Virus record (IMG/VR): IMGVR_UViG_3300025929_000015
Span: 1 to 64,000 of that record
Length of the DNA: 64,000 bases
Source: a virus
Reading direction: 5' to 3' (one strand)
Shown piece after piece: positions 20,800 to 57,255 of this stretch. A program made the translations under genes and the position numbers. Position 1 is the first letter of the stretch; every line of letters begins with the position of its first letter. The notes beneath the pieces were generated by a model. It had not been told where the DNA came from. It saw nothing but the letters and a program-made list of their open reading frames with translations, and did no database searches.

Positions 20800-21570
20800 G
20801 TGAGTCGTATTCACGGTCTACACCAGCAGGCCGCCTGAGAGAGCGATCTTTCAGAGTAAACCGCGAGAATTGCTGGGACACCCGAGTCACCTGGCCAGGC
20901 CACAACGTGGGGCGAAAGCCCGGGCGTGACGGCTTGAGAACTGGCCAGCAGAGGGGCAATCAGCAGCCGAGCCCGCCTGGGTCCGCCCGACGGGAAGGTT
21001 CAGAGACTATGTACGTGGCACCCCACGCGGGTGAAGATATAGTCCGGTCTGCATGGAGACATGCAGAGGCAGGCGGAAACGACCTGCCCGCCCGTTTTCA
21101 GGTAGCGGAAACGGGAAGTAACAAATACGCGCAACGGAATCGCCTACGTCGCCGTCAACGGCCCAGGTGGGGGCGCCGCCACCGGCTCCGCCGTCGCCTC
21201 GCCGATGGCTTTTCTTACTGACTGGAGTATTAATTTCACCGTCGCTAAGGTGGATGTCACCGCGATGGGGGACTCGAACCTGATCTACGTGGCCGGCCTG
21301 CCGGACGCTTCGGGGGACTTCACCGGGTTCTACGACACCGCGACCGCGCAGACCTACGTGGCCGCGACGGACGGCCTGAGCCGCAACTTCTACCTGTACC
21401 CGTCCACGATCGGGGCCCAGGGTACCGCTCCTGGTCAGTACTTCTTCGGAACGATCATCCCTGACTACTCCCTGACGGGTGGTGTCGGGGCCGCGGTCAC
21501 CATGAAGTCAACCTGGAACGCTGCCACGATCATCTCGCGCTACCCGGCGTCTGGTATCGCGGGTACGTAA
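20800..21570 (+). CDS. Major tail tube protein, spliced: join(20800..20817,21130..21570)
   Basis: RBS AAGGAG. Spliced frame reads MSRIHG|RNGIAYV...WSINFTVAKVDVTAMGD...YVAGLPDASGDFTGFYD. Lies upstream of the chaperone and tape measure. Confidence 0.88.
20818..21129 (+). ncRNA. Group I self-splicing intron, 312 nt, no ORF
   Basis: P AATTGCTGGGA (20868), Q AATCAGCAG (20958), R GTTCAGAGACTAT (20998), S AAGATATAGTCC (21034); P7 GACTAT/ATAGTC; P1 cggu|cu pairs with aggccg with U.G at the splice site; terminal G. Confidence 0.93.
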
Positions 21571-21576
21571 CCTGGC

Positions 21577-21715
21577 GGCAGCACCCCGGCCGTATCAATT
21601 CTGGGTTTCCCGTGACCAGTCTGGGCCGGGGTGCTGCCCCACGATCCGCTGTGCTGGCAGCACCCCGGCCGTTTCTCTCATGGAGGCCGTTCCCCTCTGG
21701 GCCAGGGTGCTGCCA
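21577..21715 (-). ncRNA. Two dual-spacer stem-loop units (A1, A2)
   Basis: A1: ggcagcaccccgg-ccgt-atcaattc-tgg-gtttc-ccgt-gaccagtc-tgg-gccggggtgctgcc. A2: ...ccgt-ttctctca-tgg-agg-ccgt-tcccctc-tgg-gccagggtgctgcca (one 7-nt segment). Confidence 0.8.
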
Positions 21716-40366: not shown

Positions 40367-40426
40367 GGGGCCGGCCGCCGGCACTATGGGCCGGTTCCCC
40401 GGCCGTAGCCATTCTGGGCCGGCCTC
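40367..40426 (-). ncRNA. Dual-spacer stem-loop unit D
   Basis: ggggccgg-ccgc-cggcacta-tgg-gccggttccccgg-ccgt-agccattc-tgg-gccggcctc. Confidence 0.75.
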
Positions 40427-40597: not shown

Positions 40598-41710
40598 TCA
40601 GATGATGTCCTGGAGCAGCGCGATCATCTCGGCGTTGGTGCCTTTCCAGTCCTGGCCGCACATCAGCCCGAATCCTTCCCGGTTCCCGTCCGGGGCCTTG
40701 AGCACGCCGGTGCCGGGCTCGGTGCCGCGGACCGTCTGGGCGGACAGCGACCACCAGCACCAGCTGACCCCGCGGGCGCCGGCCCAGGCCAGGAAGTTCG
40801 CCATCCAGCCGCTGGTCATCGCCGCGCGGCTGGCCAGGTCCTGGCCGAACTCCCCGACCCAGACCGGCGCGGTCCCGGACAGCCGCAGGTAGCCGCCCTG
40901 GCGGTCCATCTGGTCGAAGTAGGCGGACGTCGCCTGCCCGCCCGGGTGGAACCAGGAGTAGTCGTGCAGGGACGCGACCACCCCGGGACCGGTGACCGGG
41001 TGCGCGGCCCAGCCGGTCAGGTCGGTGGCGTAGGACAGGCCCTCGCAGAACACCAGGCAGCCGGGGGCGGTGAACCGGATCCGGTCGGCGGTGGCCTGGT
41101 ACATCCGCCGGAAGTCGGTGGCGGGGTTGCCGTCTCCCCAGGTCGGGTGCACGGTGACCCCGCCGATCACCGCGCTGCGCGGCTCGTTGCGCAGGTCGTA
41201 GCCGACCCGCGGGTTGGCGCCGAACGCGGCGGCGACCGTGTCCCAGCAGGCGGTGAACACCGCGGCGGGCCAGTTGTCGTTATGCCACAAGCCGTTGACG
41301 TCGGCGTCGCTGCAGCACCAGCCCGGGTAGGACAGGTGGTTGTTGACGATGACGTACAGCCCGGCGGCGGTCATGTCGGCGACCAGCGCCTGCATCAGCT
41401 GCCACGGGGTCAGCCCGGCCAGGTCGGGGTTGGCCGCGACGCGGGCCAGCGGGACCGGGCTGGTGAACGGGGTGCCGTCGCGGTTGAGCAGGGTGCCGGT
41501 GGCGAACGGGAACCGGACGTGATTCATCCCCCAGCTCACGATCCGGCCGATGATCTCACTGCGCGGCAGCTTGTCCAGGCCCGCGGCGACACGGTTGTCC
41601 TGGTGCGCGCCGGGCCAGTTCACTCCGCACAGCCGGTACGGCTGCCCGTCGGCGCCGGTGATGGCGGCGCCGGAGACGGCCAGCGGGAACGCGCTCGCGG
41701 GGATGATCAT
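40598..41710 (-). CDS. GH5 glycoside hydrolase (cellulase-like)
   Basis: GVNWPG, NHVRFP, YDLRNEP (acid/base), SLHDY and WVGEFG (nucleophile). Confidence 0.9.
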   Translation of the reverse strand: MIIPASAFPLAVSGAAITGADGQPYRLCGVNWPGAHQDNRVAAGLDKLPRSEIIGRIVSWGMNHVRFPFATGTLLNRDGTPFTSPVPLARVAANPDLAGLTPWQLMQALVADMTAAGLYVIVNNHLSYPGWCCSDADVNGLWHNDNWPAAVFTACWDTVAAAFGANPRVGYDLRNEPRSAVIGGVTVHPTWGDGNPATDFRRMYQATADRIRFTAPGCLVFCEGLSYATDLTGWAAHPVTGPGVVASLHDYSWFHPGGQATSAYFDQMDRQGGYLRLSGTAPVWVGEFGQDLASRAAMTSGWMANFLAWAGARGVSWCWWSLSAQTVRGTEPGTGVLKAPDGNREGFGLMCGQDWKGTNAEMIALLQDII

Positions 41711-41958
41711 GACTCCTCCGTCTGCGCCGCCAGCCGCCGGGAGACGCCGCACGGCCCGGCGGCTGCCGGCTCGCTTATCGTATCACGCTGTCCAAGTGTC
41801 ACTGCACGATCCTCGCGCCGCACCGGCGGCACCGCCACACCTCGTAGGTGACCCCGCTCTTGGTCACCGTGCCGACTTTGGCCAGCTTCCTGCGCGGGTG
41901 CGGGCATTCTTCCTGCGCGGGCGGGGGCTTTTTCTTCTTCGGCATCAGCGTTCCTGCG

Positions 41959-43337: not shown

Positions 43338-43742
43338 CCGCGCCGAAGACGCCGCCCCCGCCCAGCATGCCCACGGAATCTCCCAAAGTTCCTACGGCGG
43401 GGGCGGGCGGGCCGCGGCTGCCCACGTTCGGCAAGCTGCCCCGCCCGTTCGAGCCGAACCTGACCGCGGCGCACGCCCCGGCGCACTGCCTGTGCACCTG
43501 GACCTGGACCCCGGCGCTCGGCGGGCCGGACCGGCCGTTCGCGATGAAGTTCAGGAACAGGGCCTGCCCGGTCCGGCACTAGCTGGGGAACCGGCGGGTG
43601 ACGTGTCCTTCCCCGCCGCATTCGGTGCACCGGGCCTTGACCCCCCATTTGGTGGGATGCGGCACCCACCCTCTATCGCACCGGGCCGGGCAGCGGATCA
43701 CCCGGGTCACGCCCTTTTTCGCCCTGGCCATCCCTCAGTGTA

Positions 43743-51139: not shown

Positions 51140-52123
51140 TTATTCACCCTCTTTCGGTGCTACCAATTCCAACTTGACGCTCTCACCCTCGCGCAGCGGC
51201 GGCCGGGCCCCAGCCCGGGCATAGTCTTCGCGGACCTGTTCAGTGTCCAGGGACCGGCGACTGGAGACGGTCCAGCGCAAGACGTACGGGAAGTTCTCAA
51301 GCTGGACCTCGCCGCGTCCGCTGGTGTTGGGCCGCAGCGCGTCCAGCGCCCCCTTGGCCAGGGCTTCCTCGGCTTCGGCCTGCTTCTTGGCCTCCCGCGC
51401 GGCCGCCAGCCGCTTGGCCCATCCGGCCGCGTCCTGGTCCTCGACCAGCAGGACCGACCGCTCGTCCCGGTCGATCACATGGCCTTCCCAGCAGGTGCCC
51501 GAGAACGGGCAGTTCCGGCATTGCGCCGAGTCGGGGGCGAAGTCGCGGGCCAGCCATTCCAGCGGGGTTTCGCGGACCTGCTCCAGCCACTGCATCGCCT
51601 CGGTGACGGCGGCGTAGTCGAACGGCCCGGACCACATCCACGTGTTCCCGGAGTCGCGGACCAGGTAGTCCAGCTGGACCTGCTCCACGTCCAGGCCGCG
51701 GACGATCAGCGCCGCCGCATAGACTTGCACCTGCCAGAGGTGGCGGCGCGGCGGGCCGTTCAGCCGGTAGTTCGCCACCTGCATGTCGTAGCCGACGGTC
51801 TTGACGTCCCGCAGCACCGGCCGGACGTACAGGTCGGGGTGGCCGAGCACCCCGCCGAACTGCACTTCCTCGTTGATCACCGAGTCGGCGGGGATCAGGC
51901 CCTCGTCCCGCATCCGCAGCAGCGCCCGGTCCACCGCGTCGTGCACGGCGGTGCCGATCACCGCCTGCACGCTACCGCTGGGCTTCTCCGGCGGATACCC
52001 GTGGACGGTGTAGCCCGCCCGGCGCCGGCACCCACCGAGGTCCGATACGCCGAGGGCGCGCTGGCGGCTCCGCGGCCGTTCCCAGTCGGCCTTGAGTAGC
52101 AACTCCGCAGTAGACGGAATCAT
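51140..52123 (-). CDS. PD-(D/E)XK Cas4/RecB-like exonuclease
   Basis: S.LGGCRR, GTAVH, GHPD...DVKT, QVQVY and CRNCPF...C (4-Cys cluster). Confidence 0.88.
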   Translation of the reverse strand: MIPSTAELLLKADWERPRSRQRALGVSDLGGCRRRAGYTVHGYPPEKPSGSVQAVIGTAVHDAVDRALLRMRDEGLIPADSVINEEVQFGGVLGHPDLYVRPVLRDVKTVGYDMQVANYRLNGPPRRHLWQVQVYAAALIVRGLDVEQVQLDYLVRDSGNTWMWSGPFDYAAVTEAMQWLEQVRETPLEWLARDFAPDSAQCRNCPFSGTCWEGHVIDRDERSVLLVEDQDAAGWAKRLAAAREAKKQAEAEEALAKGALDALRPNTSGRGEVQLENFPYVLRWTVSSRRSLDTEQVREDYARAGARPPLREGESVKLELVAPKEGE

Positions 52124-52307
52124 GGGGCACTCCGGCCGCGCTCCCCATGGGCAGCGCCGTGAGATCCATGAGCCGGAGTGCCCCACGCGGCACCCCGTCC
52201 GTGTGATCTATGGGCCGGGCCGTAGCGTGCATGGGACGGGGACCCGCAGGCGGCACCCCGGCCGTACCCGCACTGGATACCGTATCTCAGATGGGCCGGG
52301 GTGCCGC
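52123..52307 (-). ncRNA. Array of three dual-spacer stem-loop units (B1-B3)
   Basis: Units at 52123-52185, 52187-52247 and 52250-52307. Segment pairs: gctcccca/gagatcca, gtgatcta/agcgtgca, acccgcac/atctcaga. Compensatory stem changes. Confidence 0.85.
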
Positions 52308-52310
52308 GGC

Positions 52311-52574
52311 TCACCAGTGGCGCGCTTTCGGGTGCCGCCGCGGCTTGACCGGGGCGGGCGGCTTGGCGTCCATGTCCGGGTACTTGTACCAGCGCAGCGT
52401 GCCGTTCTCGTTCTTCTTGTGCGGGCAGGCGACCGGGCCGGCCTCGAACTGGATCATCCCGCACCACGGGCAGCACCACAGGGTGCAGTGCCCGGCGCGG
52501 CAGTACCGCCGGACGGGCTCGGCGTCCCCCCGGTCCTCGCACAGGCACGACTTGCAGTCCTTCAGCTTGGTCAC
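52311..52574 (-). CDS. Small Cys-rich protein
   Basis: Several CxxC motifs; RBS GGAGG. Confidence 0.55.
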   Translation of the reverse strand: MTKLKDCKSCLCEDRGDAEPVRRYCRAGHCTLWCCPWCGMIQFEAGPVACPHKKNENGTLRWYKYPDMDAKPPAPVKPRRHPKARHW

Positions 52575-52814
52575 GTCTTACCTCCCGCAGTTCAGGACAG
52601 CGCGGCCCGGCGCCGGCGTTCCTCGTCGACCTCGGCCATGGCGAGGTCCAGCATCATGGCGACGTGCCGCAGGTCCTCGGTGGAGGTGATCAGCCGCCCG
52701 CCGGGGTCGCCGCCTTCTTCGCGTACCGCGACCACCACCGCGAACCCGATGGTGCGCTCGCGCGGGACCCCGCTCAGCGCGGCCAGCACTTCGGCGAGCG
52801 GCTCCAGGTCGTCT

Positions 52815-53984
52815 TCACGTTTCCTCATCAGCATCCTGCCCGGGTTCCTCGATGGTTTTCAGGTAGCGGTCCAGCGCCTGGCGGCGGGCCCCGGAGGAGG
52901 CGTGCCCGCCTGCCACCCGGGTCACCGTATCGTGGATGATGAACACCTCACCTTTGGACAGCTCGTTCATGCCGGACAGCTCGCGGTGGGCCAGCACGGC
53001 GCACAACCGGACCTGGGCGGGGCCGCTGACCCCGCAGCGGCGCAGCAGTTCGTGCAGCTCGGGCAGCCCCGGCGGCTCAGCGCGGACCGTCCCGGCCGTT
53101 TCACCTGTGGTCGCCGTTTCGACGTTGGGCCGGGACGACCCGCTGACCTCGTAGTCCGCCGAAGCCGCCGTCTCTGATGTGGGTTCCGTAGTCGTCATGG
53201 GCGGCCCCGGCGGGACCGCCGCCCCCGCCGTAGCTGGTTTGGGTTCCGTCGCCTCTGTGGGCGGGGGCGGATGCTCGGTGCCGGCGGCGTGCTGGCGGTC
53301 CAGCTGGGCCAGCTTGTCGCGCACGTCCTGCACGCCCGGCGCGGGCTGGGGGGCGGGGACGACCTCGGCCAGGACGGTGCTGCCGTCGTTGCCGTCCCCG
53401 ATCCCGGCCAGGTCAAATCCAAAGATCAACTCAGGGCAGCCGCGGGCGGCGCCGCGGGCGACCGCCCGCCATTGGAGCATGTCTTTCCGGTAGCTCTCCC
53501 AGGGCAGGGGCTGGCCGCTGCTGGACCGGGCGACGAGCTTGCCGTCGTGCCTCTTGACCAGGCCCGCGGCCTGCGCGTCCTGCACGGTAAACCGGCCGGT
53601 GTATTTAATCTTGAATTCCTCGTCTTTGCGAGTGATCACAAACTCGCAGGAATCCTCGGACTCGACGAAGTCGTACCTATGGCCGGCGGCGCGGATCCGG
53701 GCCAGCAGCAGCGCGCCGCGCAGGCCCGGCTGGCCAGACGGCAGCACGTAGATGCCCCGGATCGCCTGGATCCAGCTCAAGCCCAGCTCCCGGCCCAGCA
53801 GCATGGTAATGAGGCAGTTCTGCGGCGAGCCGCGGAGCGCCTGCGGGACCATGGACGACTGGGCCAGCATGGTGGCCAGCCGGAACGCCTGGTCCAGGTC
53901 GGACAGCGGGTCGTTCAGATCGACGGCAATCCGCTGCTGCTCCGTCCGGGCGAGCGCCGTGCCCGGCTCGTCAGGCTGCGTCAT
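52815..53984 (-). CDS. RecT-like single-strand annealing protein
   Basis: LAQSSMVP...G.ELGL, AQAAGL and W..Y..DML.WRA...AAR..CPE motifs; upstream of the exonuclease. Confidence 0.8.
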   Translation of the reverse strand: MTQPDEPGTALARTEQQRIAVDLNDPLSDLDQAFRLATMLAQSSMVPQALRGSPQNCLITMLLGRELGLSWIQAIRGIYVLPSGQPGLRGALLLARIRAAGHRYDFVESEDSCEFVITRKDEEFKIKYTGRFTVQDAQAAGLVKRHDGKLVARSSSGQPLPWESYRKDMLQWRAVARGAARGCPELIFGFDLAGIGDGNDGSTVLAEVVPAPQPAPGVQDVRDKLAQLDRQHAAGTEHPPPPTEATEPKPATAGAAVPPGPPMTTTEPTSETAASADYEVSGSSRPNVETATTGETAGTVRAEPPGLPELHELLRRCGVSGPAQVRLCAVLAHRELSGMNELSKGEVFIIHDTVTRVAGGHASSGARRQALDRYLKTIEEPGQDADEET

Positions 53985-54004
53985 GGTGTTCCTCCCGTGG
54001 GCGG

Positions 54005-54055
54005 GGAGGTGCCGTAGGTAGCATGGGTGAAACCGCTACGGCCCTGGGCACCTCC
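54005..54055 (-). ncRNA. Dual-spacer stem-loop unit E
   Basis: ggaggtg-ccgt-aggtagca-tgg-gtgaaa-ccgc-tacggccc-tgg-gcacctcc. Confidence 0.8.
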
Positions 54056-54151
54056 GCACGTCCATTGTACCCTGGTTGTCTCTGGCTGTCTTCCATGCTA
54101 GCGTGGGGGTACGACAAAACGGAGCGTGGGTACGGCAAAACGGGAGCCCGC

Positions 54152-54829
54152 ATGACCATCAGCCTGATGTACGACGCCACCCATGACAACATCGGCCACC
54201 TGCCGCCGCACGCCACCTACGCGGGCTACACCACCGGCAGCGGCGGCATCGCCTGGACCGCGGCGGACTGGAAGAAGTTCCCCGACGCGGTGCGGATCGA
54301 CCAGGACGCCAGCGCCGCCGACCCGTCCGCCGACATCCTGGACGTGGAGAACGGCGCGGCCACCCCGGCGGAATGCCCCGGCTGGGCCCGGCGGGCGCTG
54401 GCCAGCTTCGCCAGCGCCGCCCGGCCCGGGCAGCGTTCCCCCGCCATCTACGCCGGCGCCGCCGCCATCACCACCGTGGCCAACGCGCTGACCGCGGGCG
54501 GCGTCACGTCCGGTGTCGGGCTGTGGGTGGCGAACTGGAACCTGACCGACTCGGAGGCGGTCGCGGCCGTGACCGCGGCGTCCGGGCCGTTCCCGGTCAT
54601 CGCGGTGCAGTTCCGCAACGCCGGCCCGTACGATATCAGCGTGGTATCGACCAGCTGGCTGACCCGCCGGTCGGCGCCGCCGGTGACCGCGCACGTCCCG
54701 CCCGGGCAGTGGCTGGACCCTGCCGCGTGGACGTGGCAGACGGCGCGGCTGTCCGGCACCGGGCTGGACGGGAACACGCACGAGTGGGATTACCACCCCG
54801 GCACGGGGCAGTGGTCGCGGGCCACGTAG
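54152..54829 (+). CDS. GH25-like muramidase/endolysin
   Basis: LDVENG, PAIY, LWVANW, AVQF and DIS motifs. Confidence 0.7.
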   Translation: MTISLMYDATHDNIGHLPPHATYAGYTTGSGGIAWTAADWKKFPDAVRIDQDASAADPSADILDVENGAATPAECPGWARRALASFASAARPGQRSPAIYAGAAAITTVANALTAGGVTSGVGLWVANWNLTDSEAVAAVTAASGPFPVIAVQFRNAGPYDISVVSTSWLTRRSAPPVTAHVPPGQWLDPAAWTWQTARLSGTGLDGNTHEWDYHPGTGQWSRAT

Positions 54830-54985
54830 GCATGCCCGCGCCCGCCCCGGAAGTAGTGCTGGCCCGCTGCGCGGTCTGCCGGTTCCGGATGGACCCGGTG
54901 CTGCCGCTGCACGGGTACCGCACCCACCCGTGCTGCCAGCCCGGCGAGGTATCCCCGCGCTGGGAACCCGGCGACACCCCGCTGC

Positions 54986-55153
54986 GCGGGCCCAAGAGGA
55001 AAACGGCCCACCGGGCCCAAAGAGCCAACGGCCCGCCGCCCACAACGGGTACGGAACCAGCCAGGGTGATAACGGCGGCGGGTACAGTAGCGGGATGACA
55101 GGCAGCCCCGGCCCAGGGACCAACCCCACAAAGATGACGGCCGGGGCTGCCTG
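54986..55153 (+). ncRNA. Three dual-spacer stem-loop units (C1, C2, degenerate C3)
   Basis: cca-agaggaaa-acgg...cca-aagagcca-acgg; cca-caacgggt-acgg-aaccag-cca-gggtgata-acgg; caggcagccccggc-cca-gggaccaa-cc-cca-caaagatg-acgg-ccggggctgcctg. Confidence 0.75.
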
Positions 55154-55870
55154 ATGCGTGACCTGGCGGAGGCGTGCGAGGAGCTGCTCACCCAGCTCCA
55201 GGTGTTCGACCTCGGCGCGGCTGACGACGACCGGGCCGACGCGGGCCTGGTCACGGTAACGTGCCTGATCGCCGAGGCGGACACCGACCCGGGGCTGCGC
55301 CGCTCCGGGCTGCTGGAATCCCGTCCGCCGTGGAACGCCAACGTGGCCGGCGCCTACCTGTCCGCCCACCAGCTGGTGCGCCGCCTGGAGGCGTCGCTGC
55401 GGCTGGCGGTGGCCGGGCACCCGGGCCGGGCGCGCGGCGGGTCGGATGCGAATACCGCCGAGGCCATCCGGGCGATCGCCCGGATGGCCACCGCGGCCAG
55501 CGTGATCCCCACCGCCGAGCCGGTCTCCCGGTCCGACCCGGACGGGCGCAAGCTGACCGTGGCGGAACTGGCCGCGATCGTGCTGGACCGCGCGATCCGC
55601 GTCATCGGCCAGCTGCCCGCCATCGACGAGTTCCCCAAGTGGGAGAAGATCCGGGCCGGCCCGGACGGGCTGCCGCCGCGCTGCCCGAACTGCGGTACGT
55701 TCTCGCTGCGGGTCGCGGTGCAGTCCGGGGTGGTGGTGTGCGTGCTGCCGTCCTGCGCCGACCTGGACGGGAACAGTCCCCCGCAGGCGCACCTGGACGT
55801 CTCGCGGCTGGACGGCAGCCCGGCGCTGGTGTGGCGGGACGGCACCGTGCAGTGCCCGCCGGCCGCGTTA
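55154..55870 (+). CDS. Actinophage Zn-ribbon protein (238 aa); apparent end at TTA 55868-55870
   Basis: SRPPWN and RCPNCGTFSLR...VVC..PSC motifs. After TTA the frame is antisense to other genes. Confidence 0.65.
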
Positions 55871-56032
55871 CGGCAGGTCCCGGAGCGGGATCCAGCCGTC
55901 TGGGTAGTCACCCCGGCTGATGGCCTGGGCCAGGCAGATGGCCGCGAACGGCCTGTACCCGCGCGCCCGGCCCGTGACTACCGCCAGGGCCTCGTCCGGA
56001 TCTTCGTCCAGTTCCAGGAGAGGGTCTTTCAT
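55868..56032 (-). CDS. 54-aa hypothetical protein
   Basis: MKDPLLELDEDP...RDLP*; last ORF of the minus-strand run. Confidence 0.5.
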   Translation of the reverse strand: MKDPLLELDEDPDEALAVVTGRARGYRPFAAICLAQAISRGDYPDGWIPLRDLP

Positions 56033-57255
56033 GAGTTCTCGAATTCGATGTCGTCGATCATGTTCTGCCTTTCCCTTTCGTCACGGATTACCTCCCCAGA
56101 GTTTCCTGCTGAGCACAGGAACGCATTCCTTGCAGACCTGGAACTGGCACCACCATTTCAATTTCTTCCCGCAGTTCAGGCATCGCCCGGTCATTTCCTG
56201 CGCCGCCGTGCGGCGATACCCCTGGCGATCATCCGTAGCTTCTCCTCGAAGCAGGGTGTACACAGGCCATGATTGCGGTTGGCCACCTGAGGCGTGATCT
56301 CGTTCTCGCATCCTGCGGTCTTGCACTGCACCGTGCCCTTGCCCATGATTTCTCCTAATTTCCTTCCCGCTGCCGCCGTATCTCGGCGAGACCTTCCGGG
56401 GTGAGCAGCCAGCCGACGCACCGGCCCGTGCGGTTGCTGAGGTACCAGTCGCGGTGGCATCTGCCGCAGTGCTGGGCGGTAAGCCACCGCCCTTCATGTG
56501 CGGCATACGTGAGCGTGAAGAGGTCGAGAGGGCAGAGCCCGACCTGGAGGGCGCCGCCCCACAAGATCCAGTTGGCCTCACCGAGCGTCATGTACTCCGT
56601 CATCTGACCTCTTTTCCTTTCATGCGTCACCCGGCCCCCGAGGCCCTGCTCAAGCCCACCTGCGAACGTGGTTCCCGGCTGCCCGGAACCGTAGGTTTGA
56701 GCAGGACCTCCGCGGTCAGCTACTTCTTCTTGGCCTTGGTCTTGCGGTACCTGTTCAGGTCCCTATTCGCCTGGACCAGCGCGGCGGTAAGCCCGAAGTG
56801 GTCCGGATCTCCCCGCCTGAGCTGTCTCAGCGCATCTGCTATGTCGTTGCAGATGTCAATGAGCCGCTGCTCTTCCTGGTCTGCGGCCATCGTTACGGTT
56901 CGATCGGGCCGCAGAACGGCTGGGTCATGTGCGGGGCGATCAGCCGGCAGGCCAGCACGTGGTGGCCGGGCCGGCAGTGCGGCCGGAGCGGGTTCGCACG
57001 GTAGGCGGCGACTGCCCAGCGGATGATCGTGGTCATGGTTTTCCTTCTTCCTTCTCGGTGAATGACCGGGAATACTGGTCGTCGGGAGTGTAGGACGGGT
57101 AGTATTTCGCGTCGATCCAGGGATGCGTGCCCGGGTCGGGCACGAAGACGACCAGGCCGAACCACGGGGTCCGCAGGTACAGTGAGCAGTTCCCGTACTC
57201 GTCCCCGCCGTGCCCGGCGTACCAGCCGGTGGACGGGCCCTCCAGCAGGAGCCGC

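Follow-up and report, generated by a model that had tools for sequence, protein, structure and literature searches.

Systems of the TIGR-Tas type (with TIGR for tandem interspaced guide RNA) were described only in 2025-2026. The stem-loop type, in which TIGR arrays occur with TasA proteins (PlTasA, BlTasA, MbTasA), is the described kind that most resembles the elements treated here (Faure et al. 2025, PMC12045711; Xu et al. 2026, bioRxiv 10.64898/2026.09.09.750476; Guan et al. 2026, bioRxiv 10.64898/2026.08.11.744272). A published stem-loop TIGR unit has palindromic flanks of variable sequence around two spacers of 8-12 nt, which both have a box C on one side and a box D on the other and are joined by a variable linker; box C of TasR is CCA. 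Published stem-loop tigRNAs occupy flexible positions, including intragenic ones that lie in frame in disordered regions. Guide and protein co-vary in TIGR-Tas, and a CUU motif at the processed stem bases is frequent, though not strictly defining (both Xu et al. 2026, bioRxiv 10.64898/2026.09.09.750476). We have analysed the first 64 kb (positions 1 to 64,000, hereafter the window) of the IMG/VR virus record IMGVR_UViG_3300025929_000015, a soil phage contig of 99,376 bp with 70% GC and a CheckV completeness of 83%. It carries a family of hairpin units, many of them in and around an operon at 51.1-54.0 kb on the minus strand that comprises recT, the small genes p80 and p87, and an exonuclease gene (exo). 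We consider it rather likely that these units are stem-loop TIGR-Tas guide-RNA genes which are placed opportunistically in a well-transcribed operon and are not functional partners of RecT and Exo.

The unit family was found by a hairpin scan of the window, as GC-rich stems of differing sequence, the loops of which measure about 30 nt and contain landmarks at fixed places. Read in the RNA sense, each unit consists of a stem arm, (C/U)CA, eight variable nucleotides, RCGG, a linker of 1-13 nt, CCA, another eight variable nucleotides, RCGG and the second stem arm. Segments of eight nucleotides are present in all 14 units that could be parsed cleanly (manual parses included); in one further unit, at 21655, the spacing is one nucleotide shorter. 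The 32 segments of the 16 units analysed all differ from each other, and the CCA and CGG columns are invariant or nearly so in the 16 aligned units. Stem lengths range from 8 to 17 bp, the linkers of unit X1 and of the unit at 40367 form mini-hairpins, and the tandem arrays B3-B1, R3-R1 and X1-X3 have periods of about 57-76 nt (unit names as in Table 1). The core pattern occurs ten times in the window, with 0.05 occurrences expected. Compensatory changes on both sides were seen in 11 of the 15 stem pairs in an alignment of 13 units, and the 231-nt region of the B3-B1 array folds with -131 kcal/mol (z = -3.7), a stability that was reached by none of 200 shuffled sequences.

In a unit-pattern scan of viral contigs, arrays of the same grammar, including the variant with UCA as first box, were found in several high-GC contigs, and arrays of identical grammar flank a gene of a protein family that we term A3 in L062/G005, L026/G004, L174, L175 and L177. 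The A3 family has 75 members and no Pfam domain, and its genes in L062 and L026 are 44% identical. With an AlphaFold model of the family (predicted local distance difference test, pLDDT, 85.6) as query, the top ten matches in the PDB were cryo-electron microscopy structures of TasH and TasR, at a probability of 1.00, followed by IS110-type recombinases. Because the same grammar flanks a gene with the TasH/TasR fold in other contigs, we file the units as stem-loop tigRNA-type units of a TasA clade, and they are thus of a kind that is already known. Among 21 viral loci that carry the A3 family or remoter relatives of it, five of the eight closest have units of this grammar clustered near the gene, and the distant ones essentially lack them, which agrees with the published co-variation of guide and protein.

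The likeness to the published stem-loop units extends to the palindromic stem of variable sequence, the two short spacers within box C (CCA) and box D, and the variable linker that is able to form a small hairpin. It also takes in the tandem arrangement, the flexible genomic positions, including positions in frame within disordered protein regions, and the occurrence in phages. There are differences, too. No tas gene was found on the contig, and the units are scattered over 40 kb of it. Intragenic units lie within tas according to the preprint, but here they lie within recT and a small zinc-finger-like open reading frame (ORF). Furthermore, the spacers here are 8 nt long and followed by a conserved purine, RCGG stands on the box-D side in place of UG, and the stems are long (up to 17 bp) with no CUU at their base. 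With the dual-repeat TIGR arrays that go with TasR or TasH, the units share the dual-spacer logic and the CCA box C; in those arrays, however, the edge and loop repeats are conserved and the products measure 36 nt, whereas here the edge repeats are replaced by stems that vary from unit to unit.

Other kinds of repeat account less well for these features. A CRISPR array consists of identical direct repeats of 25-36 nt between single spacers and is accompanied by cas genes. The units here do not fit this description: the stems vary by unit and the spacers are 8 nt long and paired; TRF found no array at the locus, and the Cas4-like exonuclease is the sole Cas-like gene. REP/RAYT-like elements, integron attC sites, promoters of extracytoplasmic function (ECF) sigma factors, iterons and single-strand origins were considered as well, and none of them fits the doubled box-N8-box. 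When Rfam was run over the window at gathering thresholds, its only matches were one group I intron and one tRNA, with none at the units.

A more general possibility is that the hairpins have nothing to do with Tas and are terminators, mRNA stabilisers or selfish palindromes of the REP or Rickettsia palindromic element type, which merely resemble tigRNAs. Rickettsia palindromic elements are in-frame palindromic insertions in genes and measure 100-150 bp; they share with the present units that hairpin-forming repeats are tolerated in frame in coding genes. The units here are likewise found both at gene boundaries and in frame inside genes, and no Tas was found on the contig. The Rickettsia elements, however, have neither a box-spacer-box grammar nor an associated guide-binding protein. 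Given that the loop here repeats box-N8-box twice, with invariant boxes and a spacing of 8 nt, that at least five other contigs have the same grammar next to a gene with a Tas fold and that there is no U-tract, we regard such a Tas-independent nature as highly improbable.

A preliminary description of the locus, made from the window sequence, had reported four units that bracket the RecT-like/Cas4-like recombination module. All four are where it had placed them. Unit E lies in the leader of recT, the gene of the single-strand annealing protein, 21 nt upstream of its ATG (53984), which is preceded by a GGGAGG of its own. B1-B3 form a tight tandem array with a period of 60-63 nt, which takes up all of the 187 nt that separate the p87 stop (52311) from the exo ATG (52123), such that the last stem abuts the exo start codon. 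The number four, on the other hand, is an undercount, as R1-R3 inside recT and X1-X3 in the divergent operon had been overlooked (Table 1). Ten units thus fall within 3 kb, out of about 18 in the genome, and none were found beyond 56 kb of its 99 kb.

Units R1-R3 have the full unit grammar and at the same time encode a Pro/Thr/Glu-rich linker of RecT, comprising approximately residues 238-301. The recT frame stays open through all three of them. In an alignment with RecT of the related phages L119 and L120, both the core and the C-terminal domain, which follows beyond the units, are kept, whereas the linkers of the relatives have unrelated sequence and are about 28 residues shorter.

Table 1. 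Hairpin units, genes and predicted promoter in and around the recT-exo operon (window coordinates)
Feature	Coordinates	Strand	Description
unit E	54005..54055	(-)	9-bp stem; CCA-GGGCCGTA-GCGG, 6-nt linker, CCA-TGCTACCT-ACGG; 5'-terminal element of the recT leader
unit R3	53219..53270	(-)	in frame, recT linker; stem of 11 bp, the same as in the unit at 43352
unit R2	53156..53213	(-)	in frame, recT linker
unit R1	53082..53143	(-)	in frame, recT linker; 16-bp stem with G.U pairs
unit B3	52250..52307	(-)	14-bp stem; spacers TCTGAGAT and GTGCGGGT
unit B2	52188..52247	(-)	spacers TGCACGCT and TAGATCAC
unit B1	52121..52187	(-)	first box UCA; 17-bp stem with G.U pairs, including the exo AUG; 3' arm with GGAG
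units X1, X2, X3	54983..55153	(+)	divergent operon; X3 degenerate here, its 3' arm abuts the ATG at 55154
recT	52815..53984	(-)	389 aa, RecT-like single-strand annealing protein; PHROG 561 and 4171, E ~1e-24
p80	52592..52834	(-)	small gene, no function assigned; homologue in L148 ends in ATGA, overlapping the exo start
p87	52311..52574	(-)	small Cys-rich protein, no function assigned; other small Cys-rich genes at this place in relatives
exo	51140..52123	(-)	327 aa, PD-(D/E)XK / Cas4-like recombination exonuclease; Pfam PF12705, PHROG 1674, 1706 and 1990
sigma-70-like promoter, predicted	54064..54092	(-)	-35 AAGACA (54092-54087), 17 nt, -10 TACAAT (54069-54064)
ORF A	54152-54829		no similarity; sole homologue (L144) without units
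small zinc-finger-like ORF	54832-55098	(+)	frame backed by third-position GC; 3' tail overlaps units X1 and X2
ORF C	55154-55867	(+)	helical + zinc-ribbon protein; present in relatives without units

The predicted sigma-70-like promoter upstream of unit E (one site, against 0.0 expected in shuffled sequences) places the transcript start at approximately 54055-54058, at the 5' base of E. As there is neither a promoter nor a terminator predicted between recT and exo, E, R3-R1 and B3-B1 are expected on one transcript. We therefore envisage a single early transcript that would run from the base of E through recT with R3-R1, p80, p87 and B3-B1 into exo and carry seven units, three more being borne by the divergent operon. 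The units would have been inserted into permissive spots, namely a leader, a disordered linker and an intergenic junction. By analogy with the published family, host RNases would cut them out of the transcript, a nuclease-less TasA dimer would bind them, and the units would guide TasA to DNA sites of 16-18 bp, where it would block transcription. If R1-R3 were excised, the recT message would inevitably be cut as well. The module itself is of the phage RecET type, with which it shares the annealing protein, the PD-(D/E)XK / Cas4-like exonuclease, their order and, in relatives, the coupling of exo; it differs in that the operon here also bears seven guide-RNA-like hairpins, three of them inside recT. 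The locus shows guide units colonising a recombination operon.

Blastn of the region against phage records gave zero matches, as did a search of viral contigs with RecT peptide patterns, and tblastn with RecT returned distant matches only. Two syntenic relatives, L119/G001 and L120/G002 (119 and 104 kb), have their genes in the same order as this phage, namely p111, exo (at 73% and 69% identity), recT and then ORF B and ORF C. Neither has hairpin units near the module or, above control, anywhere in its genome, and tasA was not found in either. A third relative, L148, with an exo that is 83% identical, has the same RecT/Exo module, again without units. Conversely, in the TasA phage G005 (93% complete) the units lie beside tasA, 41 kb from the exonuclease, and a search for RecT homologues in this phage gave none. 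Homologues of RecT or Exo were not detected within 10 kb of tasA, except for weak (25%) exo matches 3-4 kb from tasA in L173 and L176. With the module free of units in three relatives and the units far from exo in G005, the association is conserved in neither direction.

The preliminary description had proposed, as a check, to look for co-occurrence of units and module across related phages, and L119, L120 and L148 have the module and zero units. It had further named as refuting any link that relatives carry the units at unrelated positions only and that neither protein binds the RNAs; relatives without any units at the module come very near to that. The proposed partnership with RecT and Exo is therefore not supported. 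Of its readings, the one that agrees best with these findings is the third, in which a strong early transcript is used by coincidence, as the relatives lack units and those of G005 are remote from exo. The first, by which processing of the array would generate the 5' end of the exo mRNA, is still plausible in view of the junction described below.

A special form of the partnership deserves separate discussion, namely that spacer renewal in the units is the work of RecT and the Cas4-like exonuclease, which would thus constitute an adaptation module for TIGR. The published TIGR papers name no adaptation machinery, the clustering of more than half of the units within 3 kb of the module would be in keeping with such a role, and so would the relationship among paralogous units. 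Those at 43352-43406 and 53219-53270 (R3), 10 kb apart and on opposite strands, have identical 11-bp stems (CCGCCCCCGCC / GGCGGGGGCGG) and unrelated spacers; likewise, the pair at 21577 and 21655 and the pair of B1 and B3 have stems in common, but not spacers. Shared stems with unrelated spacers suggest that units may duplicate and that their spacers are then replaced inside a scaffold that is kept. However, the pairing of RecT with an exonuclease is common in phage recombination, and an adaptation module would not be expected to occur without units in three relatives, to be 41 kb away from them and without a RecT homologue in G005, or to be represented near tasA (10 kb) by the weak matches of L173 and L176 only. 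Spacer renewal by this pair, which the preliminary description had raised as a link to spacer turnover, is thus very improbable for want of a conserved association, and the locus weighs against RecT plus Cas4-like nucleases as the missing adaptation machinery.

Population data give some indication of how the units change. The same arrays recur in contigs from other metagenome runs: metagenome run X4 has B1-B3 in identical form, and R2 and R3 are without differences in runs X4 and X6, R1 being covered only in part. In metagenome run X2, there are six differences over 1,638 nt, of which B2 has three: a stem A-U pair has become G.U, and the other two changes affect spacer B and the linker. The loop of unit X3 has several indels in runs X2, X5 and X6, along with a matched loss of one base in both stem arms. 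These small numbers fit the idea that units may evolve faster than their surroundings, with the stem being kept.

At the junction before exo, the exo start codon overlaps the stop of a small upstream gene in L119, L120 and L148. Because three relatives have such a stop/start overlap at this junction, the B3-B1 array, which sits exactly there in the present phage, is a lineage-specific insertion at a formerly coupled junction and has broken the translational coupling of exo. The preliminary description had noted that exo has no obvious Shine-Dalgarno sequence. This is partly right: a GGAG stands 6 nt before the AUG, in the 3' arm of B1, so that the motif is sequestered rather than absent. Compared to its look-alike B3, B1 has two compensated stem changes, one of which makes the GGAG. 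Since the B1 stem buries both GGAG and AUG, exo output is predicted to depend on B1, and exo translation should require that B1 melts or is cleaved. Under the opportunistic placement that we favour, this would be a side effect, with the array having replaced the coupling overlap and B1 sequestering GGAG and AUG, as far as can be judged at the sequence level.

One can go further and propose that the arrangement has been put to use, such that excision of B1 by a host RNase yields an exo mRNA that starts at or next to the AUG, excision of R1-R3 destroys the recT message, and the maturation of guides thereby sets the ratio of RecT to Exo. Leaderless translation is common in Actinobacteria. The idea draws on the place of the array at a junction that is a stop/start overlap in three relatives, on the presence of GGAG and AUG within the B1 stem, on the two compensated changes that set B1 apart from B3 and of which one makes the GGAG, and on unit X3, which abuts the ATG at 55154 in like manner. 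The published processing sites, however, are variable or at a CUU motif, which is absent here; the relatives manage without such a device, and the GGAG is possibly an ordinary Shine-Dalgarno sequence once the stem breathes. We hold this functional coupling to be doubtful, though it can be compatible with opportunistic placement, to which it would simply be added.

In its most far-reaching form, the recT-exo transcript would double as the precursor of seven guide RNAs, and their maturation would compete with the synthesis of recombination proteins: the removal of R1-R3 would put an end to the recT message, cleavage at B1 would release an exo message without a leader, and TasA, provided in trans or from the unassembled part of the genome, would act as the switch. 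This we think unlikely, but if true, these would be the first TIGR guides embedded in, and regulating, a non-tas operon. Irrespective of this, guide units in frame in a non-tas gene, a unit that hides a start codon at a formerly coupled junction, and a contig on which no tas gene was found are noteworthy features, and the locus offers a concrete, testable case of how units spread and of what they cost, or regulate, in the genes that carry them.

Several observations weigh against the interpretation of the units as TIGR-Tas guide genes on a common early transcript. A TasA-family profile that recovers G004 and G005 at approximately 1e-120 gave nothing in the six frames of the 99-kb contig (best E 1.5), Pfam Nop had no match in the contig at E<=10, and neither ORF A nor ORF C, which adjoin units, is TasA-like. 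No CUU was seen when the sequences that flank and join E, R1-R3 and B1-B3 were read, and the promoter upstream of E is a match to the consensus only.

Three genes were rejected as Tas proteins: ORF C, which encodes a helical and zinc-ribbon protein and occurs in relatives without units; ORF A, which shows no similarity and whose only homologue (L144) is without units; and the 384-aa gene at 40598-41752, which is GH5 cellulase-like.

Since the contig is incomplete, with a stretch rich in repeats at its end, it does not follow that tas is absent from the phage itself; we expect tasA in the missing part or in another element. The right end (genome 99290-99376; L169:1-84) is a low-GC intergenic stretch with short repeats of CCATGGTC followed by GGCCGTCAC. 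An independent 1.3-kb metagenome contig continues for 38 nt of a different short repeat and then also ends. This is probably an assembly break at repeats; the extension found no match among viral contigs. Weak synteny with the tasA-bearing G004 (40-59% identity over two ORFs) hints, as a lead only, that arrays and tasA might lie just past this end.

Should the phage have no TasA of its own, the units could be orphan decoys, abundant guide-like hairpins by which TasA from a competing phage or prophage is titrated away. No tas gene was found on 99 kb, and the stems, at 8-17 bp as compared to 4-9 bp in most tasA-side units of L026, L062 and L112, are unusually long and stable. The spacers, furthermore, have yielded no targets. 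The searches covered either tandem order and either strand and allowed gaps of 0-4 nt and at most two mismatches, with nonsense orders as controls, and the counts in the phage's own genome, in 1.6 Mb of fetched loci and in the whole relatives G001 and G002 were not above those of the controls. A sponge, however, has no need for spacers that are all different, such decoy RNAs are undocumented for TIGR, and the contig is only 83% complete and stops at repeats where another contig stops as well. A decoy function is therefore quite unlikely in our view.

Some further observations concern the same contig. A 276-aa gene (genome 69330-70160, minus strand; L170:8326-9137) is 70% identical to a gene about 900 nt upstream of the G005 tasA, and it is the only gene common to the tasA neighbourhood of G005 and this genome. 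The group I intron (window 20807-21066, plus strand; Rfam RF00028, 65 bits) is followed by two TIGR-type units at 21577-21715, the guide sense of which is antisense to the late genes around them. L074 (IMGVR_UViG_3300025928_000349), a 6.4-kb contig from another sample, encodes proteins that are 98-100% identical to those of genome 15971-22405, a match which takes in the unit-bearing regions at 16.4 and 21.6 kb. The GH5 cellulase-like gene (window 40598-41752, minus strand; Pfam PF00150, E 7e-33) has a TIGR-type unit directly downstream, at 40367-40425.

As for the genes next to the units, the ORF that begins at 55154 extends over 372 aa (window 55154-56272, plus strand). Its approximately 65 homologues, nearly all of 205-260 aa, cover the first 63% of it, and the match stops at about codon 238, where an in-frame TTA (55868) coincides with a phase shift in third-position GC. 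Between recT and exo, the relatives have differing sets of very small Cys-rich ORFs (L119:4720-5160, L120:5200-5800), which are chained by overlaps of stop and start codons, and p87 is another such gene. The recT-exo interval thus looks like a fast-evolving slot for small zinc-binding proteins.

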